DNA of 64,000 bases from Candidatus Omnitrophota bacterium (GTDB lineage: Bacteria > Omnitrophota > Gorgyraeia > Zapsychrales > Fredricksoniimonadaceae). The stretch spans positions 987-64,986 of the forward strand of contig JADFZK010000010.1 in NCBI GenBank assembly GCA_015232565.1, written 5' to 3'. The notes below the pieces were generated by a model. The model did no database searches and was not told the DNA's origin. It saw only the letters and a program-made list of their open reading frames with translations. Shown piece after piece: positions 5,533-37,021 of this stretch. The translations under genes were made by a program, and so were the position numbers. How positions within the stretch are numbered: position 1 is the first letter of the stretch; each line of letters opens with the position of its first letter.

Positions 5533-5542
5533 AGAATTATCC

Positions 5543-9288: not shown

Positions 9289-9427
9289 ACCTCACTACCC
9301 CTTAAAATCTTAAGAAACGTTAAACGTACTGCATAAGTTTCAACACCAAATCCGTCTACTACACACAGCATCTTCATGAACCACTTCAAACCAGTGCCGC
9401 CGGCACCGGTCATACAGGCGCGGTCGC

Positions 9428-10336: not shown

Positions 10337-10373
10337 CGCGCCCCCTTTTGGTTACTCTTGACTGACCAATCTT

Positions 10374-12296
10374 TTAGACCCTAACCAGCCTTCGGCCCTT
10401 GCCTTCGCGGACAGTGACCCCCTGCTCATCAAAATACTCCAGTATTGGCACCGCCTGGTTACGGGAAAAACCGGTAACCTGCCGGAACGCTCCCAACTCC
10501 ACCACCGGACATTTCTCAAACAAAACTTTAAGCTTTTTAAGGCCGGCATTCACCTCGGCCGCCGACAGCAAATAATGATCCGCCGCCACCACCAGCCCCT
10601 CCTCGATCAACAGCCGCACCAGGAACTGCATTTCCTGGTCGGTAGCATTCAACCGGGCCTGCAGGGGCGCATACGGCGCCACGCCGTGTTCCGCGCCCAG
10701 CACCGCTTTTAAGATCAGCTCCTTCTGCACCTCCTGCCGGGCGCTCAACTCCGGGCTGTAGCCTCTTAAAGCCAGAACATTCTTCTCGACCACAATACGT
10801 TCACTATCCAGAAAAAGCGCCCGGATCCCGTCCCAACAAGCCGGATCCAGCCCCAGTGCGGAGCAGGCCTGCGCGCCGGGCATACCGCGGGCCGCCTTAT
10901 TGTCTTTATGATAACGGGCCAGTACGGCCGCCAGTTTCTCCTCCAGTTCCGCCACCCGATCAGCGGCAATCCACTGTGCCGGACCGACCGGCCGAAGAAC
11001 CCCGGCTTCCACCTTGGCAGCGACAATAGCCCGGCTGTTAACATTACCCGCCAACCCGGGCAGCACGCTGGAGTCAATGATCGTAAAACAACCCGCCAAA
11101 AGCTCGCTTTGAAACGGATCCTGCCCGGCGGCCGCCTGCCGCGCCCGTTCCAGCCTTTCCGGCGTCAAATAGGCCTTCTTCCGGCGCGGATCCACATTAC
11201 AGCTCAGGATCACCCCGCCGGCAATAGTCGCCGCCGGAGAAAGTGTGCGCAAAAGGAACCGGTCGCCCGCCGCCACCACCATCGGCTCGCCGGACTCCAC
11301 CTGCATGAACCCCTCCTCGCCGGGGCCCAGCGTATTGCGCCCCGTCAACAAACCCCACACCACCCGGGTAAACGTGCCGCAACAAAAACGCATTTCCTGC
11401 CGACGCTTGATGACCGCCGATTCATGCACATTGCGGACCGCCAGCACCAGCGCACCGGTCTCCTTAAAAACACCCGGTGCCGCCAGCGTCATACCGCGCT
11501 TGATGGCCGACGCCTTTATATCCCGGATAGTAATGGCCGAACAGGTATGCGCCTCGGCCTCCCGGGCATCATAACCATATTTCTGCACCGCCCGGCAAGC
11601 CGTGGCCACCGGGCCGGGAAAAAGTTCCAGCTTATCCCCCACCGCACAGCGCCCCGACAAAGGTATCCCGGTAACCACCGTTCCCACGCCCGGCGGAGAA
11701 AAAACCCGCTCGATATCCATGCGGAACGCCCGTTCGGCCGCCGGCGCCCGGGACACCACGCCCACCAGGCGCTCGATCTCCCGGCGCACATCCTCCAGGC
11801 CCTCGCCCGTCCGGTTGGACAGCAAAACCACCCGGGCCGGGCCAAAACCGTTGGCCGCCAGAAAAGCCGCCACCGCTTCTTTAACTTCCTGCTGCCGGGC
11901 AGACGTTACCAGGTCGATCTTGGTGATCACCGCCATTACTTGCGGCGCACCCAGCAAACTGACGATCTTTAAATGCTCGACCGTTTGCGGCATAATGCCG
12001 TCGTCGGCAGCCACTACCAGCACCAGCACATCAATAGCCGACGCCCCGGCCACCATGTTCTTGATAAAATCTTCATGCCCCGGCACATCAATAATACCCA
12101 CCATCCGCTCGCCCGAAAGCCGGCAGGGCGCAAAGCCCAGATCGATGCTCATCCCCCGCTGTTTTTCCTCGGGCAGGCAGTCGGTATCGCAACCGGTCAA
12201 CAATTTAACCAGCGCGGTCTTGCCGTGATCCACATGCCCGGCAGTGCCCACCATTACCGGCACGACCCTTAATTCCTGTTGACCCGGCACGCTCAT
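10374..12296 (-). CDS. selB: Selenocysteine-specific elongation factor SelB
   Basis: The GTP-binding motifs GTAGHVDHGKT and DVPGHEDF are present. A long C-terminal extension with winged-helix-like repeats follows. The gene is adjacent to selA and tRNA-Sec. Confidence 0.9.
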   Translation of the reverse strand: MSVPGQQELRVVPVMVGTAGHVDHGKTALVKLLTGCDTDCLPEEKQRGMSIDLGFAPCRLSGERMVGIIDVPGHEDFIKNMVAGASAIDVLVLVVAADDGIMPQTVEHLKIVSLLGAPQVMAVITKIDLVTSARQQEVKEAVAAFLAANGFGPARVVLLSNRTGEGLEDVRREIERLVGVVSRAPAAERAFRMDIERVFSPPGVGTVVTGIPLSGRCAVGDKLELFPGPVATACRAVQKYGYDAREAEAHTCSAITIRDIKASAIKRGMTLAAPGVFKETGALVLAVRNVHESAVIKRRQEMRFCCGTFTRVVWGLLTGRNTLGPGEEGFMQVESGEPMVVAAGDRFLLRTLSPAATIAGGVILSCNVDPRRKKAYLTPERLERARQAAAGQDPFQSELLAGCFTIIDSSVLPGLAGNVNSRAIVAAKVEAGVLRPVGPAQWIAADRVAELEEKLAAVLARYHKDNKAARGMPGAQACSALGLDPACWDGIRALFLDSERIVVEKNVLALRGYSPELSARQEVQKELILKAVLGAEHGVAPYAPLQARLNATDQEMQFLVRLLIEEGLVVAADHYLLSAAEVNAGLKKLKVLFEKCPVVELGAFRQVTGFSRNQAVPILEYFDEQGVTVREGKGRRLVRV

Positions 12297-13687
12297 TACA
12301 GCTCTCCCCTGGCCAGGCACTGCAATTGCCGGGCCACCACCAGCTCTTCGCCCGCAAACAAGGTGCGCATATCAAAATATAAAGCGTTAGCCTTGACCCG
12401 GCAGAACACCGAAGGCAAGCCGGCCCTGAGATATTCCGCCGCCGCTTCCACTCCCGGCAAGCCGGCTTCGGCCTGAGCAAAACTGACCCGCACCACCCGG
12501 GTGGGTATGCCCTCATCGGGCAAGGACCCGCTGCCAACATACGCCACATCATCTTCCACCACCGCCGTAACCCCGGGCTCGGCGGCCAGGGCCCGCACAA
12601 GGACCGCCGCCCGCGCATCCAGCTCCGGGCGGGACACACTTAACATCTGGTAGAAAGGCAAAGCCTCGCGGTAAGTGTCATTTACAAAATGCAATAAGGT
12701 GGCCTCCAGCGCCGCCAGGGTAAGCTTGCACACCCGGAACATCCGCGCAAAAGGATTCCGGCGTATGCGCTCGATATATTCTTTTTTACCGCAAATGATC
12801 CCCGACTGGGGGCCGCAGATCAGTTTGTCGCCGCTAAAACACACCACTGCCGCTCCGGCGGATAACGAGGCCCGCACCAGCGGCTCATCGGCCAGGCCAA
12901 AGCCCGACAGCGGCACCAGCGACCCACTGCCGATATCGTCTATTACCGGCAGGCCCTTCTGCCGCCCCAGCCCGCACAGGCCGGCGATATCCGGCACGCC
13001 GGCAAAACCGCGCACCCGGAAATTGGAAGTATGCACATGGATCAAGGCGCCGGTATTCTCGTTGATCGCCCGCTCATAATCATGCAAATGCGTGCGGTTG
13101 GTGGTGCCGACCTCGCGCATGCTGACCTGGCTTTGGGCCATCACATCCGGCATGCGGAATTCTCCGCCGATCTCAATAAGCTGGCCGCGGCTGATGATCA
13201 CCTGCCGGCCTGCCGCCAGGGTATTAAGCACCAGCATGGTAGCCGCCGCGTTATTGTTCACCACCGTTGCGGCCTCACAACCGGTCAGCTCGACCAGCAA
13301 CCGCTCCACTTTTTCCTCACGCAAAGAACGTTTCCCGGAAGCCAGCCCGGTCTGCAGGACCGAATAGGCCCCCATCCCGCCCAGCGCCGCCACCGCCTCC
13401 CGGCATAATGGAGAACGCCCCAGCCCGGTGTGCAGTAAAACGCCGGCCGCATTTACCGCCGCACGCCCCTCGGGAGCCGCCAGGCGCGTGAGCCGCTTGC
13501 GCAAACCGGCGGCCAGTTCACCATCCCCGGGAATACCGGCCAACGCCCCCGCATTTATCCGGGCGCGCAGGCCATCGAGCAAAGCGCGCAATTCCAGCTT
13601 GACCGCGCCATTGCCAAATTCCCGGCCCAGCGCGCGCACCGCATCGAGTTCCAATAATGCGGACACTGCCGGGATCTGCTTTAATAA
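12296..13687 (-). CDS. selA: L-seryl-tRNA(Sec) selenium transferase SelA (start uncertain, probably non-ATG)
   Basis: The motifs VVNNNAAA, LIEIGGEFRMPDVM, EVGTTNRTH and SFSGDKL are SelA signatures, including the PLP-lysine region. The first 41 codons of the listed ORF (12296..13810) overlap tRNA-Sec, so the real start must lie at or below 13687. A GTG at 13669 is one candidate. Confidence 0.85.
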   Translation of the reverse strand, partial: LLKQIPAVSALLELDAVRALGREFGNGAVKLELRALLDGLRARINAGALAGIPGDGELAAGLRKRLTRLAAPEGRAAVNAAGVLLHTGLGRSPLCREAVAALGGMGAYSVLQTGLASGKRSLREEKVERLLVELTGCEAATVVNNNAAATMLVLNTLAAGRQVIISRGQLIEIGGEFRMPDVMAQSQVSMREVGTTNRTHLHDYERAINENTGALIHVHTSNFRVRGFAGVPDIAGLCGLGRQKGLPVIDDIGSGSLVPLSGFGLADEPLVRASLSAGAAVVCFSGDKLICGPQSGIICGKKEYIERIRRNPFARMFRVCKLTLAALEATLLHFVNDTYREALPFYQMLSVSRPELDARAAVLVRALAAEPGVTAVVEDDVAYVGSGSLPDEGIPTRVVRVSFAQAEAGLPGVEAAAEYLRAGLPSVFCRVKANALYFDMRTLFAGEELVVARQLQCLARGEL

Positions 13688-13782
13688 TGGCGGAGGTGTA
13701 TGGGAATCGAACCCACCAGGGGCTTTATCAGCCCCGCGACAGTTTTGAAGACTGCGAGCATCACCAGACACTGAACACCTCC
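13688..13782 (-). tRNA. selC: tRNA-Sec (selenocysteine, anticodon UCA)
   Basis: The minus-strand sequence is GGAGGTGT...CTTCAAAAC...GGTTCGATTCC...ACACCTCCGCCA. It has an 8-bp acceptor stem, a TCA anticodon, a long variable arm, a G discriminator and CCA, and is 95 nt long. Confidence 0.85.
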
Positions 13783-13922
13783 ACAATGTGCCAATTCTCC
13801 GGTCCCACAATGGCCGGGAGAAGTTAATTTATACCAACTGAATAATTTGTTCCGTTACGCTTATACCGCACTGCTGATACCCCGGCTTGAGCGCCATTCC
13901 CGATGGCGCGCAAATTGGTCGT

Positions 13923-14252
13923 TCACCTGCCGTTGATCCGGTTTATCAGGTCCCCCGGCTGGATCCCGGCCCGTGCGGCCGCCGAACCCGGCTCTACCGA
14001 CACCACCGTACCCTTGCCCTCCAGGACCACACCCATCGGTAAAGTAAGCGTATTGGACCGCAAGGCCACCATCTGCATGGCTGAGCCCGCCGTGCTATTT
14101 ACTGGCGTGACCGGTATACCGGCCAACGGCCTTTGCGCCGCCGGCAGGCCAGCCGGACGCTGGGACACCACCCCGAACACCAGCAACAAAACCACCAGAA
14201 AAATGATCGCGTTCACTCTATGCGCTTCCAGGTAATCGAATATTTCTTTCAT
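13923..14252 (-). CDS. Small membrane-anchored PDZ-domain protein
   Basis: The likely start is MKEIFDYL. It has one TM segment (AIIFLVVLLLVFGVV) and a PDZ-like C-terminus (GVVLEGKGTVVSVEPGSAAARAGIQPGDLINRING). Confidence 0.55.
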   Translation of the reverse strand: MKEIFDYLEAHRVNAIIFLVVLLLVFGVVSQRPAGLPAAQRPLAGIPVTPVNSTAGSAMQMVALRSNTLTLPMGVVLEGKGTVVSVEPGSAAARAGIQPGDLINRINGR

Positions 14253-14292
14253 AGGATCTTTCTGGCCGCCCAGGCCGCTGATTAAATTATCC

Positions 14293-14763
14293 TCACTTAA
14301 CCGTGAACGTCTTGGAGAAACCCGTCGGCCCGCCGGACTCGGTGAGCTGTCCGCTGTTATATTTGGTAAGCGCCTCCTGCACATTATTGGCCAGGCCGCC
14401 GAACACCTTGACCCCCCGGCGCATCAAATGCTCAAAAGGCTCGGGCCCCACATTCTTGGCGATCACCACCCCCACCCGCTCGCGCACCAGCAGGCGGGCC
14501 ACATGCAAACCCGCCTCATGGGTGGTATTTACAAAACGATTGGCCACAAAGATCGCCGTATTATGCTTGAAATCATAGACCGCAAAATAGGGCGCCCGCG
14601 AGAACACCGGCGATACCGGCGACAACAGCGAAGGCTCATCGGCCGGCACGGCCACCACATAAGGGAACACATGCGGCCGGAACGACAAAAGCATTACCGG
14701 GCTGAACAGCAGAAAAACGATCGGGATCAGAAAGTGATACCAGCTCAGTTTGATCGGCCCCAT
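14293..14763 (-). CDS. Membrane-anchored NifX/NafY-like (dinitrogenase FeMo-cofactor-binding domain, PF02579-type) protein
   Basis: One TM segment is followed by YVVAVPADEPSLLSPVSPVFSRAPYFAVYD...GVVIAKNVGPEPFEHLMRRGVKVF. This matches the HFGRAP.F.IYD...GIG..A...L...GI.V pattern. The start is refined to MGPIKL at 14763, giving a TAATG overlap with the upstream gene. Confidence 0.6.
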   Translation of the reverse strand: MGPIKLSWYHFLIPIVFLLFSPVMLLSFRPHVFPYVVAVPADEPSLLSPVSPVFSRAPYFAVYDFKHNTAIFVANRFVNTTHEAGLHVARLLVRERVGVVIAKNVGPEPFEHLMRRGVKVFGGLANNVQEALTKYNSGQLTESGGPTGFSKTFTVK

Positions 14764-15650
14764 TATTTCCCCCCGCGTGTGGTCTTTTTTAACGCCAGCT
14801 CTCTTTGCGGCAGGGCGCTGACCAGTTTTATGTGCTTGCAATCCGTACACTCCAGGCAACGGATACAATCCTTCATGTTCGGATCCTCATATACCTTCAT
14901 GCCTTCGGGGCATTTCTTCTGGCAAAGGTTGCACTCGGTACACCCGTCATCAACCTTGAGTTTCATAATGCTGACTTTATTGAAGAACGACCAGAACAGC
15001 CCCATCGGGCAAATGTACTGGCAGAACGGGCGCTTGGAAACCACGAACAGCCACAGCACCACTCCCAATATCGCCAGCTTCAGCGCGAACAACCAGCCCA
15101 CCGAACCCGGCTCAATTGTCGGCGCGCCAGTAGTAGGATTGATCGGATTCCATAATATCCACGGAATACCGGCAGTCACCGTGCCTACCGGGCACAATTT
15201 GGAGAACCAGTGCTCGGTAGTCAGGAACGGCAGGATAATTATGAAAATGATCAACATGATCCACGGCAAAACGCCCCAGTAATACGGTATGTCGATCTTG
15301 ACCGACTTGATCTTGTAAACCATTTCCTGGAACAGCCCCACCGGGCAAACCCAGCCGCAAACCATGCGGCCCACCAGTAATCCCACGATCATCAAATGCC
15401 CCACCAGAAAAAACGGAAACTGGTGGATAGCCGAATAGTGTTGCATGACCCCCAACGGGCAGGCGAAAGCCGCCGTGGGGCAAGAGTGGCAATACAGGAA
15501 CGGCAGGCACACGCTCTTGAACAGCCCCGTATAGATCTGGTTCTGGTAGATCACCGCCACGTAAACATTGGTAATGATCAGCCCGAAGAACTGGGTGGCC
15601 CGCCTAAAAGGATGTAACAGATTCATAATACGCCCATTAATGGTTAACAA
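14763..15650 (-). CDS. NapH/MauN-type polyferredoxin membrane protein (4Fe-4S)
   Basis: It has multiple TM helices with CxxxCP motifs (CHSCP, CGWVCPVG, CPVG, CPMG). The C-terminus carries two Cx2Cx2Cx3CP ferredoxin motifs (CTECNLCQKKCP and CIRCLECTDC). Confidence 0.7.
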   Translation of the reverse strand: MLTINGRIMNLLHPFRRATQFFGLIITNVYVAVIYQNQIYTGLFKSVCLPFLYCHSCPTAAFACPLGVMQHYSAIHQFPFFLVGHLMIVGLLVGRMVCGWVCPVGLFQEMVYKIKSVKIDIPYYWGVLPWIMLIIFIIILPFLTTEHWFSKLCPVGTVTAGIPWILWNPINPTTGAPTIEPGSVGWLFALKLAILGVVLWLFVVSKRPFCQYICPMGLFWSFFNKVSIMKLKVDDGCTECNLCQKKCPEGMKVYEDPNMKDCIRCLECTDCKHIKLVSALPQRELALKKTTRGGK

Positions 15651-15726
15651 TACTCCGCCCTTGACCGCCTTGACCCGCCCGGGGCACCCGGCCCCGCACG
15701 GCTCACTGAATGCCGATACACGACAG

Positions 15727-15879
15727 TCAGAGCGTGGATGAAGTCTGATAATCCTCGAAAGGATTGCCCAGCATTATCCCGATCACCGACAGTACCACCC
15801 CCACCGCCAGCACGATCCAGAACATCCGGCCGTCATCGGGCCCGATCAGCAACATGATCTTTTTTAGCTTGTCACCCAT
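15727..15879 (-). CDS. Small (50 aa) membrane protein, not in the ORF track
   Basis: It is preceded by a GAGGGG Shine-Dalgarno site. The translation is MGDKLKKIMLLIGPDDGRMFWIVLAVGVVLSVIGIMLGNPFEDYQTSSTL, and it fills the gap between coupled genes. Confidence 0.35.
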   Translation of the reverse strand: MGDKLKKIMLLIGPDDGRMFWIVLAVGVVLSVIGIMLGNPFEDYQTSSTL

Positions 15880-15965
15880 AACACCCCTCGTAAAACCGTT
15901 CCCCGTTCCGCTTTTCCCTAACCGCTTTTACCAGTGCACACGGCACCGGATCAAATTGGCGCCCC

Positions 15966-16892
15966 TCAGGCCACCGGCAAGGCGAACTGTTTATCGGCCA
16001 GCGCACCTCCCGGATACTGGCCGCCAGCCAGCACCGCGCTATCGGCCGCCGGCACACCGCTCTTTTGCAAAAGCGCCAGCGCCCGATTGATCGGCATGGC
16101 AAAACTTATGCCTGTGAACTTGCCCTGCGGGTTATACACCGCCGTATTAATACCCACGATATCGCCGTTGATGTTCGCCAGAGGCCCGCCGCTGGACCCG
16201 GGATAAGTGTAGGACTCCGTACGGATCATATTGTGATAGGTCATCCCGCCCACCGAGAACGATTGCGTACGGTCGCACACCACGCCGGTGGTAAAAACAT
16301 TCCCCGAACCAAACGCATTACCCATGGCAAAGACCAGGTCGCCGGCGCTCACGTTATCGGAATTCCCCAGGTCGGCCGACGGCAGAACCGTAAGCGTATC
16401 GATCTTCATCAAAGCCAGGTCATTGGCCTTATCCGACAGCACCATACTGGCCGCATAAGTCATTTCGGTATTAGTCGGAGTATAAACCGTCACCTGGATG
16501 TCCGTGGCACCGCCCACCACATGATAATTGGTAAGCATATACTGGTCGGCGATGATCACGCCCGAGCCGCTCACCTGCTCCGGCACCCCGTTGATGACCT
16601 TGCCGCCGGTGATGCGGGCGCAAATATGGTTCATATTATGCGCGATGTTGTTATACACCTTCTCCAGCGAAGCCGCCGACAGCGTGGGCGCGCCGCTGGT
16701 GTAAACCGGGTGCTTATAACCGATCCAGTGTTCGGCCATCTCGATCTGGAACATATGCCAGGCCATATTAAAATTGGCCACTATCGCCACCGGAACAATT
16801 ATGCCCGTCAAAAAAATTATCCAGACCGACAATTGCACATTGTCGCTAATATTAAACCAAGCCTTATTCGGTTGCTCTTTAGGGGATATCAT
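15966..16892 (-). CDS. Membrane-anchored trypsin-like serine protease (HtrA-type catalytic domain, no PDZ)
   Basis: The real start is MISPKEQ... at 16892, which makes an ATGA overlap with the upstream ATPase gene. His is at LTNYHVV, Asp at ANDLALMK, and the nucleophile motif reads GSSGGPLAN. Confidence 0.8.
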   Translation of the reverse strand: MISPKEQPNKAWFNISDNVQLSVWIIFLTGIIVPVAIVANFNMAWHMFQIEMAEHWIGYKHPVYTSGAPTLSAASLEKVYNNIAHNMNHICARITGGKVINGVPEQVSGSGVIIADQYMLTNYHVVGGATDIQVTVYTPTNTEMTYAASMVLSDKANDLALMKIDTLTVLPSADLGNSDNVSAGDLVFAMGNAFGSGNVFTTGVVCDRTQSFSVGGMTYHNMIRTESYTYPGSSGGPLANINGDIVGINTAVYNPQGKFTGISFAMPINRALALLQKSGVPAADSAVLAGGQYPGGALADKQFALPVA

Positions 16893-17716
16893 TGGACCGC
16901 CTCCAGGAATTTGCCTACCTCGGCCGAGGCGCCCGCCGTGCGCCGCGCCTGCCCGCAGGCGATCAGCGCGGCACCCCGCGCCGCGGTCATCTGCGGCGCT
17001 TCCGCAATGATCACGTTCCGGTCGAGCGCGTCGGAAAGCGCCCGCGCCATGCCCGGGATCAAGGCCACCCCTCCGGTAAAGACCACCGGGCCGTTTACCC
17101 GGCCGGCCAGCATGGCCACAATGCGCCGGGCCACCGAATGCTGTACCCCGGCCGCCAGATTGGCCGGCGCCTCTTCCGCGGCCAGCAGGCCCACGATCTC
17201 GGTCTCGGCAAAAACCGCGCACATACTGCTGATGATCGACGGACACGCCGCTTTTTCGGCCATTGCTCCCAGATCCTTAAGTCCAGTTTCCAGCCGCACC
17301 GCCACGATCTCCAGGAACCGCCCGGTTCCAGCCGCACACCGGTCATTCATCACAAAATCATAAACCAGTCCCCGTTCGTCGAGCCGGATCACTTTACTGT
17401 CCTGCCCGCCGATATCTATAATGGTGCGCGCGTTCGGCACCTGCGCTATCACGCCATAAGCCTGGCAGGTAATTTCGGTCACCGCGGCATCCGCCCATTC
17501 GACGGCACTGCGCCCGTAGCCAGTAGCGATCACCCGGGAAACATCCTCGCGCCCCAGGCCCGCCTGGCCCAGAACCTGTTTAAAAAGATCATGCGCCAGG
17601 GCCGCCTGCCGCACCCCCTGGTCGCAGATCCCGGAGGCGATCAACTGCCCAAGACCCTCATCGATGACCACCACCTTGATAGTGCGCGAACCCACATCCA
17701 CTCCGGCATATAACAT
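16889..17716 (-). CDS. BadF/BadG/BcrA/BcrD-type ATPase (HgdC-like activator of 2-hydroxyacyl-CoA dehydratase-type enzymes)
   Basis: The motifs GVDVGSRTIK, TGYGR, IIDIGGQDSKVI, FVMNDRCAAGTGRFLE, CAVFAETEIV and FTGGVAL give near-collinear motif conservation with HgdC. Confidence 0.85.
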   Translation of the reverse strand: MLYAGVDVGSRTIKVVVIDEGLGQLIASGICDQGVRQAALAHDLFKQVLGQAGLGREDVSRVIATGYGRSAVEWADAAVTEITCQAYGVIAQVPNARTIIDIGGQDSKVIRLDERGLVYDFVMNDRCAAGTGRFLEIVAVRLETGLKDLGAMAEKAACPSIISSMCAVFAETEIVGLLAAEEAPANLAAGVQHSVARRIVAMLAGRVNGPVVFTGGVALIPGMARALSDALDRNVIIAEAPQMTAARGAALIACGQARRTAGASAEVGKFLEAVQ

Positions 17717-17719
17717 AAA

Positions 17720-19138
17720 CTACCGCTCTTTCCTTTGGTTCCTGACAGTTTCTACCAATGCTTCCAGCCGCGTCCGCAAAGTCCCCTGCAAAGGGTCACA
17801 GACCGAGGGCACTTCTATCTCCAGCACCGGACAATTCCCGGCCGCCGTCACTATTTCCCGAATAACTTCGCCCTCCAGGGCGCAGTGACTGGCCCCGGGG
17901 ATACGGGAAATTATCAAAGCCTCCGAACCAAAAGCGCGCATATCGCGCTGAATGCGTTGCGCCCGTTCCTGGGCCGTACCCGCCATCGGATCGGCCAGCG
18001 CCACGCGCGCCAGGGCTTCCAAAGGCGGAATATCATCCGGTATCTGGTCCAGGGCATGGGTAAACAAATAATCCGTCCCGCAGATCCGCCCGCCGCACTC
18101 CTCCAGCAGGTTCATAGCTTTCAGGTCGGCCACCGGGTTAACCCAGAACACCCGCACTGCGTCCCGGCCATGAAACCCCACCCCCCGCCCGGTCCGCTCC
18201 CGGACCGTGGCCAGTAACTCCTCCAACACCACCAGCGTTTCGGCGCGATCGGAACAATAATGCAAGGCCAGCATCTCGGCCACCAGCAACTCCAGGGCCG
18301 GCAAAGGCGCCAGCCCGGCGGTAAATACTGCTCGGCGCAATTCCGCCAGGCAAGACCGCACTTTATTGGCCTGATGGATACTGGCCGCCAGCATCCGGTC
18401 GGTCAGCTTGACATTGCACTGCATGGTAAAACCTGTTATTACGCGCGCCAGCTCGGCCTGGACAAAAGCCACCTGCCCGGCACCGGCCCGCGCACCGCCC
18501 GGCAATAACGCCGCTTTCTCACCCGGCTCAGGTTCCCGCCGTTGAGGCAGTTCCCACCACAATACCGGATGCCCCAGGCCTTCCACCCGCTGGGCGATCG
18601 CCGAAAAATCATCACAAGTCGCGCCCACACTGCAAACCAGCAGGTCCGGCCGCGGAAAATGCTCCCCGGAAACAAAAGCCCCCAGCATGGCGCGAACCGG
18701 ACAAAACGACTCGTCCACTCCCAGGCGGTCAGCGATCGCCAGCAAACCGGCATTGTCTTCCAGCAAACACGGCAGCCACCACGCTCCGTCCGGATAAAAC
18801 GCCACCAGATCCGGATAAGCGCAGGCAATGACCGGCACCGTACCCAGGTCTTTCATGGCCCCGATCAGTGTTTTACCGGCCAACCGGGCCTGGCGCAAAC
18901 GATCTTCCTCGGTCAGCAAAAAGTTCCACAGTTTAAGCGCCGCAAAAGAATTGTCGAACTGCAGCCGGGCCAGGCGCGTATTCCCGCTCCGCACATGCCG
19001 CCCCAGCAAACCGCCATAACCGGCGTCCCGGGGTTCCAATGACCCCGCGCGCTCGTAAGCCTCGTCCCATTCCTCCAGCGTGATCTGCCGTGGAACCGCT
19101 ACCGGGCCCAGCGCCCGCTCTGCCAGGCAAAGGCTCAC
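17720..19138 (-). CDS. 2-hydroxyacyl-CoA dehydratase / DCCP-like subunit (HGD-D family)
   Basis: Cysteine ligand-type motifs FCPVRAMLG, VGATCDDF and GASHCALE are present. The gene is coupled to the activator ATPase gene. Confidence 0.65.
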   Translation of the reverse strand: MSLCLAERALGPVAVPRQITLEEWDEAYERAGSLEPRDAGYGGLLGRHVRSGNTRLARLQFDNSFAALKLWNFLLTEEDRLRQARLAGKTLIGAMKDLGTVPVIACAYPDLVAFYPDGAWWLPCLLEDNAGLLAIADRLGVDESFCPVRAMLGAFVSGEHFPRPDLLVCSVGATCDDFSAIAQRVEGLGHPVLWWELPQRREPEPGEKAALLPGGARAGAGQVAFVQAELARVITGFTMQCNVKLTDRMLAASIHQANKVRSCLAELRRAVFTAGLAPLPALELLVAEMLALHYCSDRAETLVVLEELLATVRERTGRGVGFHGRDAVRVFWVNPVADLKAMNLLEECGGRICGTDYLFTHALDQIPDDIPPLEALARVALADPMAGTAQERAQRIQRDMRAFGSEALIISRIPGASHCALEGEVIREIVTAAGNCPVLEIEVPSVCDPLQGTLRTRLEALVETVRNQRKER

Positions 19139-20202
19139 CGTAAACCCTCCATAAAAGCCCCGATACGATTTCGGACACGCTCGTTCATTCTTCCGCCGTC
19201 CAACTCAATATCCAGCAACGGCACCTCCAGCGCCGCGCGAAAACGCTCGGCTTCTGCATGCCATTTATCGCACCACAAGTGGCGCACAAAAACCACCCCG
19301 CGCACTTGCCGGGACCGGACCGCTTTTTCCATCCAGGCGAAGATCCCGCTGTTCGGCCGCTGAAAAACATCGGGGATCGCGCGAAAATACGCTTCCGTCA
19401 ACACGCCGGTCGGGTCCTCCTTGATGCGCCGCAAATCAAGCCGCGCCGGAAAAGCCCGCTCTCCCGACTCGGTGCCGTTAAAGACCACTTCGGCGCCATG
19501 ATCGGCAAAAACATCAAACAAGTCGAACTGGCGCGCGGTTAAAGGCCCGCCGATAAAACCCACCGGGACCGAGCCCGCATACGGCCGCCCGCAAGCCAGG
19601 CCGGCGAAATTCTCGTCCCGCACCTTGCCGTTCTCGCCAAAAAACTGCAATTCACGCGCAAAATCACCAGCCGACAGATCGTTCTGGCGCGCCAACACCA
19701 TCCGGCGGTTAATATCGTATTCCAACAGTATCGACACCAGGCGCTCCGGCTCCACCCGTTTACCGCCCAGCGTTACACAAAAACGGCCCAGCCGCTCCAG
19801 CTCGGCGGCATATAACGCGCTAACCTCGGGCGTGCCGCAGGTGGACGGCACATTCATCAGAAAACACGGCACCTTAGTACGCAAATTTATCAGATCGGCT
19901 CCCCGGCGCATCTGGTCGCAAGTAGTTACCAGCACTACTCCCAGGACCTGGGGATCGCTTACGGCCTCGTTAATGAACCCGCGCATATATGCGCAAACCC
20001 CGGACTCCACACTCACCGGCGGCGCACCCGAGCCGCCACAAAAAGCACTGCCGCCGGAAGTCATCCGCCACGGCACCAGGCCATGCGCCGCTATCCATTC
20101 CGCCGGCACAAAAGGACTGGTAAAGATGATCTTTTTTCCCCGCCGCAAAGCCGTACCCGGACTATCCATGGTTGCACCCCTGGCGGCCTTTAACAGTCTC
20201 AA
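19135..20202 (-). CDS. HGD-D family subunit (smaller paralog)
   Basis: The motifs GVCAYMRGF, VTTCDQMRR and HLWCDKW are present. It overlaps both neighbours. Confidence 0.6.
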   Translation of the reverse strand: MRLLKAARGATMDSPGTALRRGKKIIFTSPFVPAEWIAAHGLVPWRMTSGGSAFCGGSGAPPVSVESGVCAYMRGFINEAVSDPQVLGVVLVTTCDQMRRGADLINLRTKVPCFLMNVPSTCGTPEVSALYAAELERLGRFCVTLGGKRVEPERLVSILLEYDINRRMVLARQNDLSAGDFARELQFFGENGKVRDENFAGLACGRPYAGSVPVGFIGGPLTARQFDLFDVFADHGAEVVFNGTESGERAFPARLDLRRIKEDPTGVLTEAYFRAIPDVFQRPNSGIFAWMEKAVRSRQVRGVVFVRHLWCDKWHAEAERFRAALEVPLLDIELDGGRMNERVRNRIGAFMEGLR

Positions 20203-21361
20203 ACAACGATTGCACCCGCAAACTCAACCGGGCGTTATCGGAGGGCGAATAATCTGTCTCGATCTTCAGGTAAGGCATTCTCAGCTTGTCCTCGGCCAGC
20301 GCCTTAACGGCCTGGGCTTCTATATCGTAAGTCAGGCAGGTCCGCCAGACCACTTCGATCACACACTCCGCCCGGTATTCCCCGGCCAGAGCCTCCAGCC
20401 GCTCCAACCGCCGGTCGTTAGGCGTCATCACCGAACAGGGCAAATGAAAATATTTCGCCGCTAGCGCCCGTAACAGGTCCGGGGCATCAATGTCAATATC
20501 TTCCAGCACCGGCTTCTCGCCGGAACAGCTCTCCTGGCACACCACCAGCCCGCCATTATCCTCGATCAGGCCCAGCACGCGCTCGGCGCCGTGCGGCAAA
20601 GGCACGCCCGTCAGCAAAACCCGCACGCGCTTACCGGCCGCCGGCTTTATTTCCCGTCCGGCCAACCAGGCCGCGGCTTTGGAATACTGCTCGTGATCTT
20701 GCGGCAAACCGGCGATCAGGCTTCTCATCCCCAGCAATTCACGCCCGGTCAACGGCGGGCAAGCGCTTTGCATCAACCCGGCCAGCTCCCGCTTAAGGCG
20801 GCGGTCGCGATTCATTACCACGACGGCTTCTTTAAGCTTCTCATCCGTGATCTCAACCGCAAAACGTGCTTCCAGTTCTTTCCGCAACTTTCTCAGCTCG
20901 GCCACCCAATGCTCAAAAGCATCGGCATCGCGGGATTTTTGCGGCAATTCCAGCACATACATCGGATGCCGCTGGCCCAGCAATTCATACATTTTCTTTT
21001 TTCCGTCACAAGTGGTCTCCGCCACCACCAGACTGGCCATTTCCAGGAACGGATTGGCTTTTTCCAGGCTGTACCCAAAAGTCGACTTGATCAACGGACA
21101 AAGATTGGCCGGCAAAACCCGCTCCGCCGGCTCTACCATTTCCGCCGACCCGCCGCATAAGCACACCGGCACGCCACCCGCGGCCATGATCAGCTCCCGG
21201 GGGGTGAATTCACACATGATCCCCACGACCGGCGCCCCCTGGCTTTTACGCAATCGGGCATACGCCAGGCAATTCTGCACTTGGCCGGCAAAATGCTCCA
21301 GCGGACCGCCGTCCTGCGCCCGCGCCACCACCTGATCTTTTGTTCCGCAACATCCGGCCAT
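20162..21361 (-). CDS. HGD-D family subunit
   Basis: The motifs VGIMCEFTPRELIMAAG, ETTCDGKKKMYELL, CQESCSG and WRTCLTYD are present. Confidence 0.65.
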   Translation of the reverse strand: MAGCCGTKDQVVARAQDGGPLEHFAGQVQNCLAYARLRKSQGAPVVGIMCEFTPRELIMAAGGVPVCLCGGSAEMVEPAERVLPANLCPLIKSTFGYSLEKANPFLEMASLVVAETTCDGKKKMYELLGQRHPMYVLELPQKSRDADAFEHWVAELRKLRKELEARFAVEITDEKLKEAVVVMNRDRRLKRELAGLMQSACPPLTGRELLGMRSLIAGLPQDHEQYSKAAAWLAGREIKPAAGKRVRVLLTGVPLPHGAERVLGLIEDNGGLVVCQESCSGEKPVLEDIDIDAPDLLRALAAKYFHLPCSVMTPNDRRLERLEALAGEYRAECVIEVVWRTCLTYDIEAQAVKALAEDKLRMPYLKIETDYSPSDNARLSLRVQSLFETVKGRQGCNHG

Positions 21362-21390: not shown

Positions 21391-22983
21391 TTAACTTTTA
21401 GCAGCCTTGTCCCGGCAGGCCTGAAGGCACTCGCCATAGAACATTTTGACCGGCGCCCCGCCCACCAGGACCGCGCACCACATAACCTCGTCGAGCTCGG
21501 CGGGCGTAATGCCCATGGCCAAAGCTTTAGCGTAATGCAAATTAAAACAACCATGACAGCGCTGGAGCAAAACCAGCGCGAACAAGATCAATTCTTTGGC
21601 CCTTTTATCTATCACCCCGCTCGCCGTTACACTGGCCACCAGGTCGCCAAATGCCTTGGCCGATCCATTAGCCGTCGAAGCTAACCCTGCCGAAGCCGCG
21701 CCTTCCGCCATGCCCGTACAGCAGCACGCCGGCTCTTTATGCCCATCCTGTTTTTTATCCCCGCTCATTGCGCCCTCGCTTTTAGTCATCACCAGTTCAA
21801 TAGCCCCGCACCGGGCCGCCACCACTTCGCCTATCACCGCCGCGCCGGCACCGCGCGCTTTAAGTTCGCTCACCAACTCGCCCAAACGCGCCAGCGGTAC
21901 AGCTATCATCAGGCCGCCCGAAGTCTCGGCGCCCAATCCCAAATATTTATATTCATTGCCCACATCGGCGTCAGCGCATAATTCTGCGCCCACGAACTCC
22001 GCGTTACGCTCGCTGGCCCCGGATATAACCCCGGCCCGTAACAGGTCCAGCGCTCCGGAAAAGGCCGGCAAAGCATCCGCGTAGACCCGGGCCGCGGTGC
22101 CGGAATGACGCATCATGCGCAATAAATGCCCGAACAACCCAAACCCGGTTATGTCGGTGCAAGCCGAAACGCCCACCTTGACCATTGCCGCGGCGGCTTC
22201 CTTATTAAGAAGCATCATGGACTGTTCAGCCTCCAGTAACCCGGCCGCATGCTCCCGCCCTAACTGGCGCGCAAAAGTCAGGACCCCGGTGCCCAGCGGC
22301 TTGGTAAGCACCAGCACATCGCCCGGCCGGGCCGTTTCCAGGGCAACCGCCGCACCGTTCAAGATCTCCCCGGTGATGGCGAACCCCAGCTTGACCTCGG
22401 TATCTTTAATGCTATGCCCGCCCAGCAAAGCGCAGCCGGCGCTGGCCAGTGTTTCCATAGCGCCTTTTAACATCAGGAACATGATCTCTTTATCGTGAGT
22501 TTCTACCGGGAACGCCAGAATGCTCAGCGCAGTACGCGGCACCGCGCCCATGGCATAAATATCAGAAAGGCAATTGGCGGCGCAGATCTTGCCGAAGGTT
22601 AACGGGTCATCTACGCAAGGAGTGAAAACATCCACCGTCTGGACCAGCGTGGTGCCGGCATTGATCCGGTAAACACCGGCGTCATCCGCGGCGGCCAGGC
22701 CGGAAAGTACAGCGGGATCATCGACCGCCGGAAGGCGCGCCAGCAAGCCCTCCAGGTCGGCCGCCGGGATCTTGGAGGCGCAACCCGCGCTTGCGCTCAT
22801 GGCGGTCAGCTTGACACTGGCAATATCCACCGGAGTCGGCCGCTCGCCGGCACAAGGGCACAGGTCACATTCCAACAAGCTCGCGCACGGACAGGCCTGC
22901 TGGACATCACAAATGCAATGCCCCAGCGCCCTGGAACGCCCCATAACCCGGGCGCGAATCGTGTGTTTATTGTTTTCTGCCAT
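21391..22983 (-). CDS. selD: Selenide, water dikinase (SelD, Cys type) with Cys-rich N-terminal extension and C-terminal AhpD/CMD-like domain
   Basis: The SelD core includes MSASAGCASKIP, which aligns with the active-site GCGCK, and a PurM-like fold. The N-terminal ~55 aa are Cys-rich (HCICD..CPC..CDLCPC). The C-terminal ~110 aa carry an AhpD-like CxxC-type motif (LQRCHGCFNLHYAKALAMG). Confidence 0.8.
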   Translation of the reverse strand: MAENNKHTIRARVMGRSRALGHCICDVQQACPCASLLECDLCPCAGERPTPVDIASVKLTAMSASAGCASKIPAADLEGLLARLPAVDDPAVLSGLAAADDAGVYRINAGTTLVQTVDVFTPCVDDPLTFGKICAANCLSDIYAMGAVPRTALSILAFPVETHDKEIMFLMLKGAMETLASAGCALLGGHSIKDTEVKLGFAITGEILNGAAVALETARPGDVLVLTKPLGTGVLTFARQLGREHAAGLLEAEQSMMLLNKEAAAAMVKVGVSACTDITGFGLFGHLLRMMRHSGTAARVYADALPAFSGALDLLRAGVISGASERNAEFVGAELCADADVGNEYKYLGLGAETSGGLMIAVPLARLGELVSELKARGAGAAVIGEVVAARCGAIELVMTKSEGAMSGDKKQDGHKEPACCCTGMAEGAASAGLASTANGSAKAFGDLVASVTASGVIDKRAKELILFALVLLQRCHGCFNLHYAKALAMGITPAELDEVMWCAVLVGGAPVKMFYGECLQACRDKAAKS

Positions 22984-23123: not shown

Positions 23124-23708
23124 ATGAAGACTTACAACCAGACCACGGCGGCTTGTTATATTTACACTTTCAAGAAGGGCCTGCTCTCTGCTTTGGCCCA
23201 TGACCTGAAGATCCAAGTTTTTAAGTTTGAGATAAAAACCACTGGCAGTACGAAGGATACCGCGGACTGGAAAAACATTGAGGCCAGGTTTGATGCCGCC
23301 AGCCTACGCACTGTTTGCGCCATGAAGGACGGCGCGCGCTCTCCGGCAAAACTGTCGGATCAAGACAAGCGCGATATTGACCGGAACATCATTAATGCGG
23401 TTTTACACTCGCAGGAATTTCCCGGCATCACCTTTCGCTCCAGCAGTATTACCCGGCGAAAATCCGGCGTGGTTATCAAAGGCGCACTGACCATTTGCGG
23501 CCAAACCCGCACCATTACTCTCCCGGTCCAGGAATTAAATACCTGTTATCGCTCCGAACTGGTCATCGACCAGCGCGACTTTGGCATCCAGCCCTTCAGC
23601 GCCTTAATGGGAGCAATGCAAATTAAGCCGGAGATCATCGTGCGGATCGAGCTGGGTAAGGTTACGGCGAAGGCACCGCTATCGGAGCATTGTCCGACAG
23701 ACCCATAA
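23124..23708 (+). CDS. YceI-like periplasmic/lipid-binding domain protein
   Basis: ITFRSSSI...GVVIKGALTICGQTRTITLPV resembles the conserved core of the YceI family. The 3' end overlaps the convergent giant gene by 47 nt. Confidence 0.5.
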   Translation: MKTYNQTTAACYIYTFKKGLLSALAHDLKIQVFKFEIKTTGSTKDTADWKNIEARFDAASLRTVCAMKDGARSPAKLSDQDKRDIDRNIINAVLHSQEFPGITFRSSSITRRKSGVVIKGALTICGQTRTITLPVQELNTCYRSELVIDQRDFGIQPFSALMGAMQIKPEIIVRIELGKVTAKAPLSEHCPTDP

Positions 23709-26700
23709 ACTCTGGCAAGGCCACCAGCAATGGACTGATATCAACAATTATCGGCGCAAGGCCCACAGAACTTTGTAATTGCCGGATCATCGCCGGATCA
23801 AGATCAAATTTAACGCCTGGCCCTTCACCCTCCAACCGGAGATCGAGCTTGTCCCGGGCCAGATCAATACCGCCCACCTCGTCAATGAGCCCTACGGCTG
23901 GTGCACCCGCCATCGAGCTGTCAAACGGGACAAGATAAGCCTTGGCCGCACCAGTTGAATCCAGGTAGTACTTCCCACCCAGATAGCCGCCGATCTTGTC
24001 CAGGCCGTAATCCACTTCCTGTTTTCCATACCGGTTTTCAACAAAACCTCCCGAACCAAAATACTTCCCATGCCCCGGCTGGCCGATAAGAAAGCGCCTT
24101 GCGCCAATATGTTGGGCGAATTGCCGTGCATACTCGACCATGCCACTGCCCACCGCGTTCATTAAAGGCTCGATGCGCTCATAATCAGCATTGATCTCCA
24201 GGTTCTGGATCACCAGGCTGCCGTCCGTGGCGATATACAACCACGCCGCGGCCATGGTCTTTTGCGTATCTTCATCAATGACCTCAAGGACATTCAGCCC
24301 TTCATCGATCAGCCGGTCCATCATCGCATCCGGATATTGATTGGAATTCATCCCCAAACAGCAATTGGTAAAATCCCCGATAAACAAATCGTGCCCAGGA
24401 TTACGCAGGATCGGCCTGACCAAAAAATGCCGACGCTGTTTCCCAAGATCCTTTTGATATTCCGGATTATCCATCCTCGCCTGGAGCGTGGCAATACGCT
24501 CGCCCAAATGCGTGACCATTTCCAGCAGAGGAACATTGTGCTGAACATTCTCTGCTGAAACCAGCCTGCTCTGTATTGCTAACAGCATTTTCAGATTAGT
24601 ACGCTCCGCGATCGCCGAAACGATATCGCGCTTCTTTGCAGCGCCCACCACCCTAATGGCTGACACCAGCCCCCGAGGATCCCTAACAGCCGCCAGGCCG
24701 CTCTGTTTTAAGAACTGCATCAACGCCTCACGCTGGTCAGGCTCCAGCTCAGCATTCAATGTATTCACAATGTAATTCGCCACCACCCCGGCATCAGCCA
24801 CCGGGTCGTACTCTTGCATGGAATTCTCATGATACAGAAAAGCCCCTTCCGGCATTCTGCTGTTTCCGGCTCTGCCTAACCAGCGCTCAACATCGATCCC
24901 CGCACCAGCCAGAGCCTCACGCACCAACTTGTTGTGCTGTGCGATCAACTTTCCCTGTTCATTCGCCTGCTCGGTGTCTTCTATAAAAACCCAGAACCGC
25001 CCCTGCAACATGGCCGCTACCAACGCCCGAAACCGCTCATATTTCTCCGGCGTATTTCCCTTTATAAATAACAAAGCATCCCGGATCCGGGAAAGATAAG
25101 GCATATATAAACTTTGCCCCGCCTCCGCCGAAACTGCTTCGGCGGGAACTTCAAGATAACTGGCGAGCTCACCCATGAACAAGCCCTCCAGGTGCTTCGC
25201 CAGATCCGTAACGCTCATTGGCTCTGACAGGGCGTTGAGTATTTCTACGCAACGCCGGCCTTTCCCCAGATCAATAAACCCCGCCATCGTGTTAATGACT
25301 TTAAATAATGTCGTCATATCTACCCGAAAAGCCTTTCGCGAAATCTTTTCGTGCTCCACCCGCATTCGTTCCAGCACACCGCGCAAAGCCTGCATAGCCG
25401 CCCCATTGCGCAGAAAACTTTGTTTGCTTCCCAGAAACCTGACCACTACCGGCACGCCACCATTATTCTTCAGGGAAGCAGTAATATATTGCGCGCCTTG
25501 TCCGGGCAAAAAAGCCTCCAAAGCGCCCACCAGCGGCAGATATTCCCTCTGAAACACATCTCGGCTGATCTGGCGATCCTCGGAGGATCCTTTGTTCGCT
25601 TCATCCAAAGCCGACACAACATCCGTTAGCAAAGCGTCTTCACGCTCCACGCTCGGCACATCGAGACCAGACACCCAATCAAGAACATATGCATTGCCGA
25701 GCACCAAAAGCCCCCGGCGATCCCAGAACTCATACTGCTTTATTGCTTCAGGCCCCGTCTGGCCTTGCTCAACCATTCTCAGGCAAAGCGCTCCTAGTGC
25801 ATTTACAATAGCGCATTGTACAACCATCCTGGCACTCTTCAGTCGGAATTCCAGATCACCGATTGTCATTCGACCCTGCTCAACCTCCCTTATGTAAAGC
25901 AGGGTCAACGCATTCCCGATATTACGCAACGCCTCTGAATCATACTCGACCTTCTCAAGCGCCTCCATATCAACAATTGCCATCTTCCCGAGCTTGATGC
26001 GAAGCGTGTTTAGCGCATTCCTGAACGCAGGCTCTATAAGTGAATCATTGGCGCTCTTTTCCGCACGAGCCTCAAAAGCCTCCATTGTCATTTGCCCTTG
26101 TTCCACCCTCCTCAGGTAAAGCGTCCCCAGCGTAAGCGCAATCGCACACCGCACATTTACCGCTTCAATTTTATACTCGGACTCCAAAGCCTCTATAGTC
26201 AATTTTTCTTGCTCAACCAGGCTTATGTACAGAGCGATCAACGCCTCATGGTTCGCCAGCCTTAACTCTGAATCACCCAGTGTCCTCAGACGACTCTCCA
26301 GACCATCTTTGGTCCATCGGCCTTGCTCGATCAAATGCAAATAGATCAACACCAACCCATTCATGATCGCCCTGCGCACCTTCCAATCTTCTTCCGTCAT
26401 TAAGCGTAATTCTAAAGCCTCCTTGGTCGTCTGACCCTGCACCACCATCTTTAAGTAAAGCGAGCCCGAACCCTTTATGATCTGCGGCACTACATCCAGA
26501 TTTGGCTCACGCTTCAGGAAAGCCTCCATAACCTCCGCTGACACTTGTCCTTGTTCGAGCTTCCTTAAGTAAAGCTTACCCAGCAATTCAAGCGCTTGCT
26601 GAAGACTTTGATTGCCTTCTACCGCCCTCCAACGGTTTTCAAACATATCCAAGGTCATCCGGCCTTGCTCGACCATCTTCTCGTCAAACATTAGCACCAC

Positions 26701-28419: not shown

Positions 28420-28557
28420 TACAAAGCTGTCGACCCAAATACCCAGCCACTACAAGTATTTACTATATTGTTGGGAAAACAAGGGGGGCACGGCCAAAAA
28501 CGGGAAAGCGTTTTCTTCTCGACGAGAGGCGGAAAAAATACTTAAAATATCCAGCAA

Positions 28558-31273: not shown

Positions 31274-31298
31274 CCGTTCCTTGTATTAAATTGCGCCA

Positions 31299-32042: not shown

Positions 32043-32075
32043 AGAACGATCCCTTTCGTTGCCTTTATGCCGGAT

Positions 32076-33361: not shown

Positions 33362-33365
33362 AAAC

Positions 33366-33497: not shown

Positions 33498-33528
33498 CCC
33501 CAACCTCCCGGTTCACACCCGCCAAATT

Positions 33529-37003: not shown

Positions 37004-37021
37004 ACAGACCTCATTACCCGA

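Follow-up and report, generated by a model that had tools for sequence, protein, structure and literature searches.

A double-cubane cluster protein, two divergent HGD-D proteins and one activator ATPase form a conserved module with synteny to selenium genes in uncultured bacteria

The stretch analysed here, 64,000 nt from a Candidatus Omnitrophota bacterium (assembly GCA_015232565.1, contig JADFZK010000010.1, positions 987 to 64,986; hereafter the window), carries four adjoining minus-strand genes which code for one activator ATPase and three proteins of the HGD-D fold. These four open reading frames (ORFs) had been listed in a preliminary description, and both their coordinates and the gene couplings claimed there were confirmed. 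Read 5' to 3', they are DCCP399 (20162..21361; NF040772, PF06050), a canonical double-cubane cluster protein (DCCP); HGD355 (19135..20202; PF06050 and an ortholog profile), apparently a divergent subunit of beta/N type; HGD472 (17720..19138; PF06050, an AlphaFold2 (AF2) model and Foldseek), apparently a divergent subunit of alpha/O type; and a single archerase-type activator ATPase of the HgdC/HadI/DCCP-R family (16889..17716; PF01869, TIGR00241). The Pfam model HGD-D (PF06050, cut-off 28.4 bits) gives 311 bits for the 399-aa protein, 112 bits for the 355-aa protein and 114 bits for the 472-aa protein. The genes for DCCP399 and HGD355 overlap in ATGGATAG, and because of this overlap the start of HGD355 is most likely the ATG at 20169 (344 aa). 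HGD355 and HGD472 share a GTGA overlap, HGD472 and the ATPase gene are separated by 3 nt, and the ATPase stop overlaps the start of a protease gene in ATGA. A gene for SelD lies upstream on the same strand, 30 nt from that for DCCP399. Judged by these junctions, the four HGD-D/ATPase genes are a translationally coupled operon.

By sequence membership, DCCP399 is a true double-cubane cluster protein. With NF040772 (cut-off 350 bits) it reaches 389 bits, compared to 53.9 bits for HGD355 and 49.2 bits for HGD472, and it aligns over its full length with the DCCP of Carboxydothermus hydrogenoformans (6ENO/7YYL; E=1e-58). The seven ligand cysteines of that structure correspond to C50, C69, C88, C118, C279, C309, and C342, each of which is kept in 69-70 of 70 orthologs. 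The pattern published for DCCPs, CX19CX18-19CX29CX166-170CX32-34CX32C, fails on DCCP399 when applied literally because the spacings differ (X18, X18, X29, X160, X29, X32); by alignment, all seven cysteines are present. A partner ATPase of the BcrAD/HgdC family is encoded in the same operon. Members of the clade to which DCCP399 belongs start with an MxKCCG N-terminal tail (window 21350-21361, minus strand), the CC pair of which is found in 46 of 74 orthologs and which may be a metalloid-binding arm. In DCCPs from Planctomycetota this tail is often followed by DPCNPPxPxC.

Single-sequence searches of PDB barely detect the other two HGD-D proteins, HGD355 and HGD472 (the two E-values are 0.013 and 3e-5), and no model in NCBIfam release 20 claims either of them. 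Failing every curated model, they constitute new families within the HGD-D superfamily. When an ortholog profile is used, HGD355 matches structures in PDB with E-values from 4e-21 to 8e-10 (DCCP at 4e-21, BzdN at 3e-20, MbdN, HadC), and hhalign aligns it with DCCP at a probability of 99.4%. Its invariant C70, C95, and C311 are equivalent to C88, C118, and C342 of DCCP399. At the positions of C279 and C309, HGD355 orthologs have Glu245 (71/76) and Asp278 (74/76), while at position 29, the equivalent of C50, 54 orthologs have Cys and 21 have Ser.

Within the module, conservation is highest for HGD472, with 62-71% identity across phyla and a mean column identity of 74-79%. Its ortholog profile is recognisable in the C-terminal half alone; the N-terminal half is nearly unrecognisable against solved structures by sequence. 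With hhalign, residues 79-469 are placed on DCCP at 97% probability. The AF2 model (pLDDT 81.7, pTM 0.86) is a complete two-domain fold, for which Foldseek reports the alpha subunit HadB (TM 0.72/0.85), BzdO (0.70/0.75), and DCCP (0.67/0.75) at 13-20% identity. C124, C146, C175, C295, and C419 are invariant, and C169 and C353 are conserved to ~97%. HGD472 retains the DCCP-equivalent C146, C175 and, roughly, C419; the equivalents of C50 and C309 are gone, and C124, C169, C295, and C353 are additional to the DCCP set.

Three to four of the seven double-cubane ligands are therefore missing from each member of the pair. The preliminary description had taken all three HGD-D proteins for DCCP-like subunits. 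This stands for DCCP399, in which alone the double-cubane set is kept; HGD355 and HGD472 are a separate, HadBC/BzdO-like pair that can be uncoupled from DCCP in some genomes (see below). BzdO (Cys95/128/380) and HAD hold their catalytic [4Fe-4S]-OH2 cluster by three cysteines in a 2+1 arrangement (PMC11971306). HGD472 and HGD355 resemble the alpha-type and beta-type subunits, respectively, of HadBC or BzdON, and each is predicted to carry a three-Cys single cubane with one iron open to substrate.

The ATPase scores 180 bits with PF01869 and 237 bits with TIGR00241 ('acyl-CoA dehydratase activase', cut-off 125). Its matches in PDB are HadI (4EHT, 2e-55), MbdQ (8e-49), HgdC (1HUX, 2.5e-46), and DCCP-R (7YYL_E, 3.5e-40). 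C127 and C166, which putatively bridge a [4Fe-4S] cluster, are present in all 77 orthologs.

The SelD upstream of the module (21391..22983, minus strand) is a fusion with a C-terminal AhpD/CMD domain and has a Cys-rich N-terminal extension; it scores 305 bits with TIGR00476 (cut-off 125) and matches the Pfam domains AIRS, AIRS_C, and CMD. All 53 orthologs share the active-site C68 (motif SAGCASKI) and, equally invariant, three further motifs: CxC-x5-CxC-x8-CxC (residues 23-44), CC420-421, and CxxC476/479. Such SelD-CMD fusions are widespread, with 120 database homologs from Omnitrophota, Planctomycetota, Myxococcota, Armatimonadota, 'Syntrophus', Chitinivibrionales, and Limisphaerales. The SelD fusions listed in PMC2398784 are Ndh-SelD and NifS-SelD; the AhpD/CMD combination is not among them. 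In all of these a redox or sulfur-transfer domain is attached to SelD, presumably for the delivery of reduced selenium. The fusion described here differs in that the partner is an AhpD/CMD domain with CxxC, accompanied by the N-terminal six-Cys motif, and in its genomic coupling, which is to an ATP-dependent Fe-S reductase and not to a desulfurase or flavoprotein.

Further selenium genes, absent from the preliminary description, are found just downstream on the minus strand (10374-13782). The tRNA for selenocysteine (Sec), tRNA-Sec (selC, 13688..13782), was detected by ARAGORN with the anticodon TCA and by Rfam RF01852 with 75 bits (gathering score 47). SelA, the selenocysteine synthase (12296..13684), scores 466 bits with TIGR00474 (cut-off 268); its start is placed at about 13684 because the ORF as listed runs into tRNA-Sec. 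SelB, the elongation factor specific for Sec (10374..12320), has the Pfam domains GTP_EFTU, SelB-wing_2, SelB-wing_3, and Beta-barrel_SelB. In the Rfam scan of the window, tRNA-Sec was the sole match, without a riboswitch or a curated SECIS family. Promoter and terminator scans gave counts no better than chance and were not used as evidence.

A relative of HGD472 is encoded in 427 GTDB species. Synteny was counted for the 80 best loci of such relatives (loci carry L numbers), where the denominator for each gene is the number of loci with enough contig; 27 of the loci form a full-flank subset, and in a census all ORFs of 89 loci were clustered. The 80 best loci, which come from more than eight phyla, are spread over Planctomycetota, Omnitrophota, Armatimonadota, Verrucomicrobiota/Victivallales, Myxococcota, Nitrospiraceae, Hydrogenedentes, Aminicenantes, and Eubacteriales. 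The conserved gene order is ArsM-like methyltransferase, DCCP, beta-like subunit, alpha-like subunit, ATPase. HGD355 is present at 70/70 loci, DCCP at 66/67, and the methyltransferase at 54/57; the ATPase is encoded by one gene in the window and by a single gene at 75/78 related loci. Two loci (L074, L083) have the methyltransferase, HGD355, HGD472, and the ATPase without DCCP, and three (L085, L088, L089) have DCCP and the ATPase without the alpha/beta pair, still adjoining SelD, SelA, and SelB.

Of the 27 full-flank loci, 22 have a sel gene no more than 10 kb from the module, as do 54 of 65 loci with partial room. At 45 of 80 loci, the ATPase gene is followed directly by SelD-CMD in the same direction. 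At least five arrangements occur, for example SelA-SelD-SelB followed by the module, SelD followed by the module (as in the window), and the ATPase followed by SelA; selected linkage is therefore favoured over inherited synteny. In a complete genome of 6.5 Mb (GCA_942493075.1, L084), the genes for DCCP, methyltransferase, both HGD-D proteins, ATPase, SelA, SelB, and SelD-CMD are a single co-directional array. The recurrent families of the census are SelD-CMD (59 of 89 loci), the methyltransferase (52), SelA (33), an exported lipoprotein (31), SelB (30), a NapH-like protein (17), and an NMT1-type ABC transporter (8-11). No family of a CoA pathway recurs. The preliminary description had proposed to examine the neighbourhood of orthologs: module and sel genes recur there, while the protease and NifX-like genes that it had named as neighbours do not. 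At L074 and L076 the neighbours are peptidases, an ABC-2 transporter, SufS/SufD, and glyoxalase II only, which give no hint at a substrate.

The methyltransferase, a conserved ArsM-like protein of 267 aa that uses S-adenosylmethionine (SAM), precedes DCCP at 54 of 57 loci (e.g., L001:6919-7725, plus strand) and has the SAM motif I GvDLCCCxGaG. Its best NCBIfam matches, all sub-threshold, are the DVU_1556 family and arsenite methyltransferases (ArsM-type 40 bits vs 263). No tblastn match to it was obtained in the window, and it is missing between selD and DCCP here as well as in L085 and L088. A methyltransferase of 208 aa encoded in the window (8662-9288) was considered as its counterpart and ruled out; it belongs to a different, CpaM/BioC-like family. 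Upstream of the module, many Planctomycetota carry further genes (L001:3682-4929 and 5159-5683, plus strand; L001:5984-6907, DUF3034; L003:2408-5250). Among these is the unannotated family of exported lipoproteins counted in the census, with a common C-terminal GPPF-IKT...F-I-DE-G-L-SG-F-YG module. The DUF3034 protein has a signal peptide, ends in YEF and resembles an outer-membrane beta-barrel. Together with the NMT1-type ABC transporter, the lipoprotein family and the DUF3034 protein may be a substrate uptake system.

Each of three known systems shares features with the module. Like DCCP/DCCP-R of C. hydrogenoformans, the locus has a DCCP above the model cut-off with seven cysteines and, adjacent, a single BcrAD-type ATPase with both cluster cysteines; L085, L087, L088, and L089 have exactly this two-gene pair. 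It differs in that DCCP399 is co-operonic with two divergent HGD-D proteins, SelD, SelA, SelB and, usually, the methyltransferase, in the MxKCCG tail, and in the activator, which is closer to HadI than to DCCP-R.

With the 2-hydroxyacyl-CoA dehydratases (HadBC with HadI, HgdAB with HgdC; 3O3M, 4EHT, 1HUX), the module shares 2+1 three cysteines per subunit and a single activator of homodimer type next door, and by fold and Cys pattern the HGD472/HGD355 pair would be compatible with their alpha/beta heterodimer, which it resembles. The structural matches to these enzymes are only 13-14% identical, however, and HGD472 is extended at the N-terminus by ~80 residues, contains an insertion and has four more invariant cysteines. 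The HadC equivalog model NF052456 (cut-off 700) reaches at best 69.8 bits, with DCCP399, and does not match HGD355 or HGD472. Unlike the dehydratases, the pair has SelD and the methyltransferase as genomic partners, and a CoA-transferase and 2-hydroxyacid dehydrogenase are lacking.

Class I benzoyl-CoA reductases (BCR; BzdNOPQ, MbdONPQ; 8S02, 9GAI) likewise combine a double-cubane carrier, a three-Cys catalytic subunit, and an ATP-driven module, and HGD355 aligns over its full length with BzdN/MbdN while HGD472 structurally resembles BzdO/MbdO. They have two distinct ATPase subunits (A/D or P/Q), whereas there is one gene here, and they carry the [8Fe-9S] cluster on the N subunit, whereas the N-like HGD355 has lost the ligands and the double cubane is on a third protein. 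There are no aromatic-degradation genes at the locus. Among the BCR equivalogs, TIGR03190 (BzdN, cut-off 454 bits) gives 80 bits for DCCP399 and 16 bits for HGD355, and TIGR02263 (cut-off 421 bits) gives 56 and 18 bits. The Pfam and NCBIfam annotations of the window flanks contain no CoA-transferase, CoA-ligase or acyl-CoA genes, and neither 2-hydroxyacid dehydrogenase nor dienoyl-CoA pathway genes were found in these flanks or recur among the 89 loci. With one ATPase gene, no CoA-pathway genes, and equivalog scores far under cut-off, the locus is neither a 2-hydroxyacyl-CoA dehydratase nor a benzoyl-CoA reductase, in agreement with the preliminary description. The literature searched, Haft & Tolstoy 2025 (mSystems) excepted, holds no description of an HGD-D protein or DCCP linked to SelD, or of this module.

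The preliminary description had suggested a non-CoA substrate, possibly a metal or metalloid. A metalloid fits the synteny with SelD, SelA, and SelB across phyla, and a non-CoA substrate is plausible. DCCPs are known to reduce small molecules, and their physiological substrate is unknown (PMC11971306; bioRxiv 10.1101/2022.07.06.499078); they are enriched beside SAO selenoprotein loci (Haft preprint, bioRxiv 10.1101/2022.07.06.499078), and TudS, of the same superfamily, binds and transfers a chalcogen at a unique cluster iron (PMC11971306). We tentatively interpret the locus, at a little under an even chance, as a conserved selenium-linked, ATP-driven, low-potential Fe-S reductase system which supplies reduced selenium to SelD. 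The selenium link itself is made by strong synteny; substrate, direction of selenium flow, and subunit stoichiometry are what we infer.

Electrons could come from the NapH/CcoG-like membrane polyferredoxin encoded downstream in the window (14763..15650, minus strand; Fer4_5, PF12801 66 bits; NapH/MauN TIGR02163 sub-threshold) or from a ferredoxin. The NapH-like protein is 81-87% identical in L002, L004, and L014, and a homolog is found within 10 kb of the module at 12 of 27 full-flank loci, with loci devoid of magnetosome genes among those that carry it. It is a possible electron donor. The ATPase, a homodimer-type enzyme in which C127 and C166 would bridge a [4Fe-4S] cluster, would boost these electrons via ATP hydrolysis and serve both DCCP399 and the heterodimer-like HGD472/HGD355 pair. 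Se(0), polyselenide, selenotrisulfide or organoselenium would then be reduced at the open Fe-S site(s). The reduced selenium might be relayed by the CC tail of DCCP, the CxC repeats and CC linker of SelD, and the CxxC of the AhpD domain to the SelD active site, where selenophosphate would be formed and no free selenide would be released. For Se(0)/HSe-, E0' is about -0.7 V at pH 7 as calculated from textbook potentials, which makes an ATP-coupled boost of electrons thermodynamically sensible. It is possible, if doubtful, that selenium assimilation in anaerobes owes its missing selenide-generating step to an ATP-driven DCCP and a HadBC-like pair, which would reduce selenium that is hard to access (Se(0), polyselenides or organoselenium compounds) and pass it by Cys relays into SelD-AhpD.

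Several points weigh against selenium supply as the function of the module. Synteny argues for a functional tie to selenium metabolism and specifies neither the reaction nor its direction. Since related genomes are not independent, the locus counts overstate the statistical support, and all carrier organisms are uncultured, represented by metagenome-assembled genomes (MAGs). At 5 of 27 full-flank loci there is no sel gene within 10 kb. An Elusimicrobiota MAG (L087) has none within 9 kb; there, DCCP and the ATPase come straight after DsbD and two AhpC/TSA-redoxin genes (L087:5788-10953). SelA, SelB, and SelD-CMD also occur without the module (L086); SelD-CMD is therefore the regular SelD in these lineages and no partner reserved for the module. 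It is not obvious what part the SAM methyltransferase would have in selenide supply, and the alpha/beta pair is, according to the model, structurally similar to enzymes for organic CoA esters. No in-frame TGA was found at Cys columns in the orthologs of DCCP, HGD355, HGD472, ATPase, methyltransferase, or SelD. That the module proteins are themselves selenoproteins was rejected; in-frame stops occurred only at the ends of high-scoring segment pairs, which are gene boundaries.

An unlikely alternative is a conventional radical dehydratase or reductase with an organic substrate, be it a CoA ester or another compound, next to a DCCP of unrelated function; the sel genes would be nearby due to hitch-hiking or to shared regulation under anoxia, and selenium chemistry would not be directly involved. 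HGD472 is closest in structure to the catalytic HadB and BzdO, the two divergent subunits share the three-Cys pattern known from catalytic [4Fe-4S]-OH2 sites (PMC11971306), HadI is the nearest match of the activator, and sel genes are not nearby at some loci. Set against this are the identity of only 13-20% to characterised enzymes, the equivalog models (hidden Markov models) far under cut-off, and the lack, here and as recurrent families in 89 loci, of CoA-transferase, CoA-ligase, 2-hydroxyacid dehydrogenase, and dienoyl-CoA genes. Across more than eight phyla, the linkage to SelD has persisted in no fewer than five rearranged gene orders.

Selenium might instead be a component or product of the system, with SelD as the provider of activated selenium, either for a double cubane bridged by Se (2x[4Fe-4S]-Se) or for a methylated organoselenium metabolite; in the latter case the radical alpha/beta enzyme and the methyltransferase would work downstream of selenophosphate. 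Biosynthetic clusters linked to selD, such as senABC, are a precedent, and this would be a further trait of selenium utilisation beside Sec, selenouridine, the Se cofactor of Mo-hydroxylases, and selenoneine. A 2(4Fe-4S)-Se cluster in DCCPs has been raised as possible (bioRxiv 10.1101/2022.07.06.499078). The position of SelD, last in the operon behind the ATPase at 45 of 80 loci, would be in line with such a role, and a methyltransferase at 54 of 57 loci suits biosynthesis better than supply. However, SelA and SelB are linked as well, and SelD-CMD lies between them in L049, L054, L057, L061, and L079, which marks it as a housekeeping SelD. The window, L085, and L088 keep the DCCP-SelD linkage without the methyltransferase, and the census shows no recurrent selenium-transferase-like gene (SelU, SenB or YqeB/C type). 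We consider this distinctly unlikely.

Improbable, in our view, is a Challenger-type methylation and detoxification of metalloids, in which reduction alternates with SAM methylation of Se, As or Te oxyanions and the adjacency of sel genes reflects common selenium homeostasis. Vicinal Cys pairs are typical ligands of soft metalloids. The sub-threshold matches of the methyltransferase are to arsenite methyltransferase and ArsM-like selenoprotein families; the latter have a 'UxxG' Sec motif (PMC13188914), which could correspond to its GvDLCCCxGaG motif I. Yet its ArsM-type score is far under the cut-off, the protein is dispensable in the window, L085, and L088, no ars or efflux genes recur in the census, and detoxification reductions need no ATP-driven potential below -600 mV.

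A function of the module in the magnetosome, e.g., in low-potential redox control of iron or iron-sulfide biomineralisation, is suggested by its position inside a cluster of MamA, B, M, E, N, O, P, Q-like and magnetochrome genes, by the overlap of the ATPase stop with the start of the MamE/O-like protease, and by the same arrangement in L002, L004, and L014 (in reduced form in L085 and L088), but is barely credible and was rejected, being largely refuted by a distribution in which about 75 of 80 loci are from Planctomycetota, Armatimonadota, Verrucomicrobiota, and others with flanks devoid of magnetosome genes; a candidate PDZ selenoprotein next to the sel genes (see below) is the better explanation for their presence in the cluster.

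The window of this Omnitrophota MAG appears to be a magnetosome-type gene cluster, a character which the preliminary description had not mentioned. Flanking genes have their best NCBIfam matches with MamE, P, M, B, A, Q, N, and O, none of which reaches the equivalog cut-off. Two window proteins pass the Pfam magnetochrome domain (48.9 vs cut-off 30.4), and Pfam MamI is present in the related locus L085. Mam-like genes, three genes for magnetochrome-domain proteins, and two separate pairs of CDF transporters (29478-31273, 40618-42472) are located on the minus strand at about 28500-48300 and 9400-16900.

The gene adjoining the ATPase (15966..16892, minus strand) codes for an HtrA/MamE-like serine protease without a PDZ domain (Trypsin_2, 98 bits; best NCBIfam matches DegP and MamE, sub-threshold). 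It is beside the module at 1 of 27 full-flank loci. A NifX/NafY-like protein (14293..14868, minus strand; Nitro_FeMo-Co, PF02579, 65 bits) is syntenic only in the Omnitrophota loci L002, L004, and L014. Protease and NifX-like genes thus belong to the magnetosome context of Omnitrophota and some Desulfobacterota and are outside the conserved system. Of the neighbours on which the preliminary description had relied, all are real genes, with SelD conserved and the NapH-like protein partly so; the other two are specific to the lineage. A second NapH-like/NifX-like pair (32519-33469 and 33882-34592, minus strand), 41% and 34% identical to the first, adjoins a magnetochrome protein and a CDF pair. 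Between the gene for a PAS protein and selD, an ORF of 1585 aa (23662-28419, minus strand) has a weak HEAT-repeat match only; in the syntenic L002, no gene of similar size has been called at this position.

Just 5' of tRNA-Sec, selA, and selB is an ORF (13824..14252, minus strand; in-frame TGA 13923-13925, TAA 13824-13826) in which readthrough of the TGA completes a PDZ domain. The TGA and its context, INRING(R/K)-U-TTNLRAI, are conserved between the window, L002, L004, L014, and L085, i.e., at four further loci and across two phyla (Omnitrophota and a 'Syntrophus' MAG with magnetosome genes). About 16 nt 3' of the UGA there is a SECIS-like hairpin, GCGCCAU-CGGGA-AUGGCGC (GC-rich, CGGGA loop). 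L088 has a truncated PDZ ORF of 68 aa at the matching position. We regard the PDZ ORF as a candidate selenoprotein inside the magnetosome-type gene cluster; its adjacency would account for the presence of selC, selA, and selB in that cluster.

Taken with the distribution of the module, these data suggest a hitherto unrecognised selenium-handling enzyme system in hundreds of uncultured anaerobes. A 2022 review notes that a high-affinity system for selenium uptake has yet to be identified and ascribes the reduction of selenite to thiol chemistry without specificity (PMC9312934). The substrate of DCCPs and the source of selenide in anaerobes are two questions which a module from more than 400 species ties to one testable system. 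Independent of its function, two uncharacterised and strongly conserved families (HGD472 with about 64% identity between phyla) are added to the HGD-D superfamily, and the current labels of these proteins, '2-hydroxyacyl-CoA dehydratase' or 'BcrC/BadD/HgdB', are probably misleading. If the module does generate selenide, this would provide the first physiological substrate for DCCPs and, with HGD472 and HGD355, two new enzyme families.

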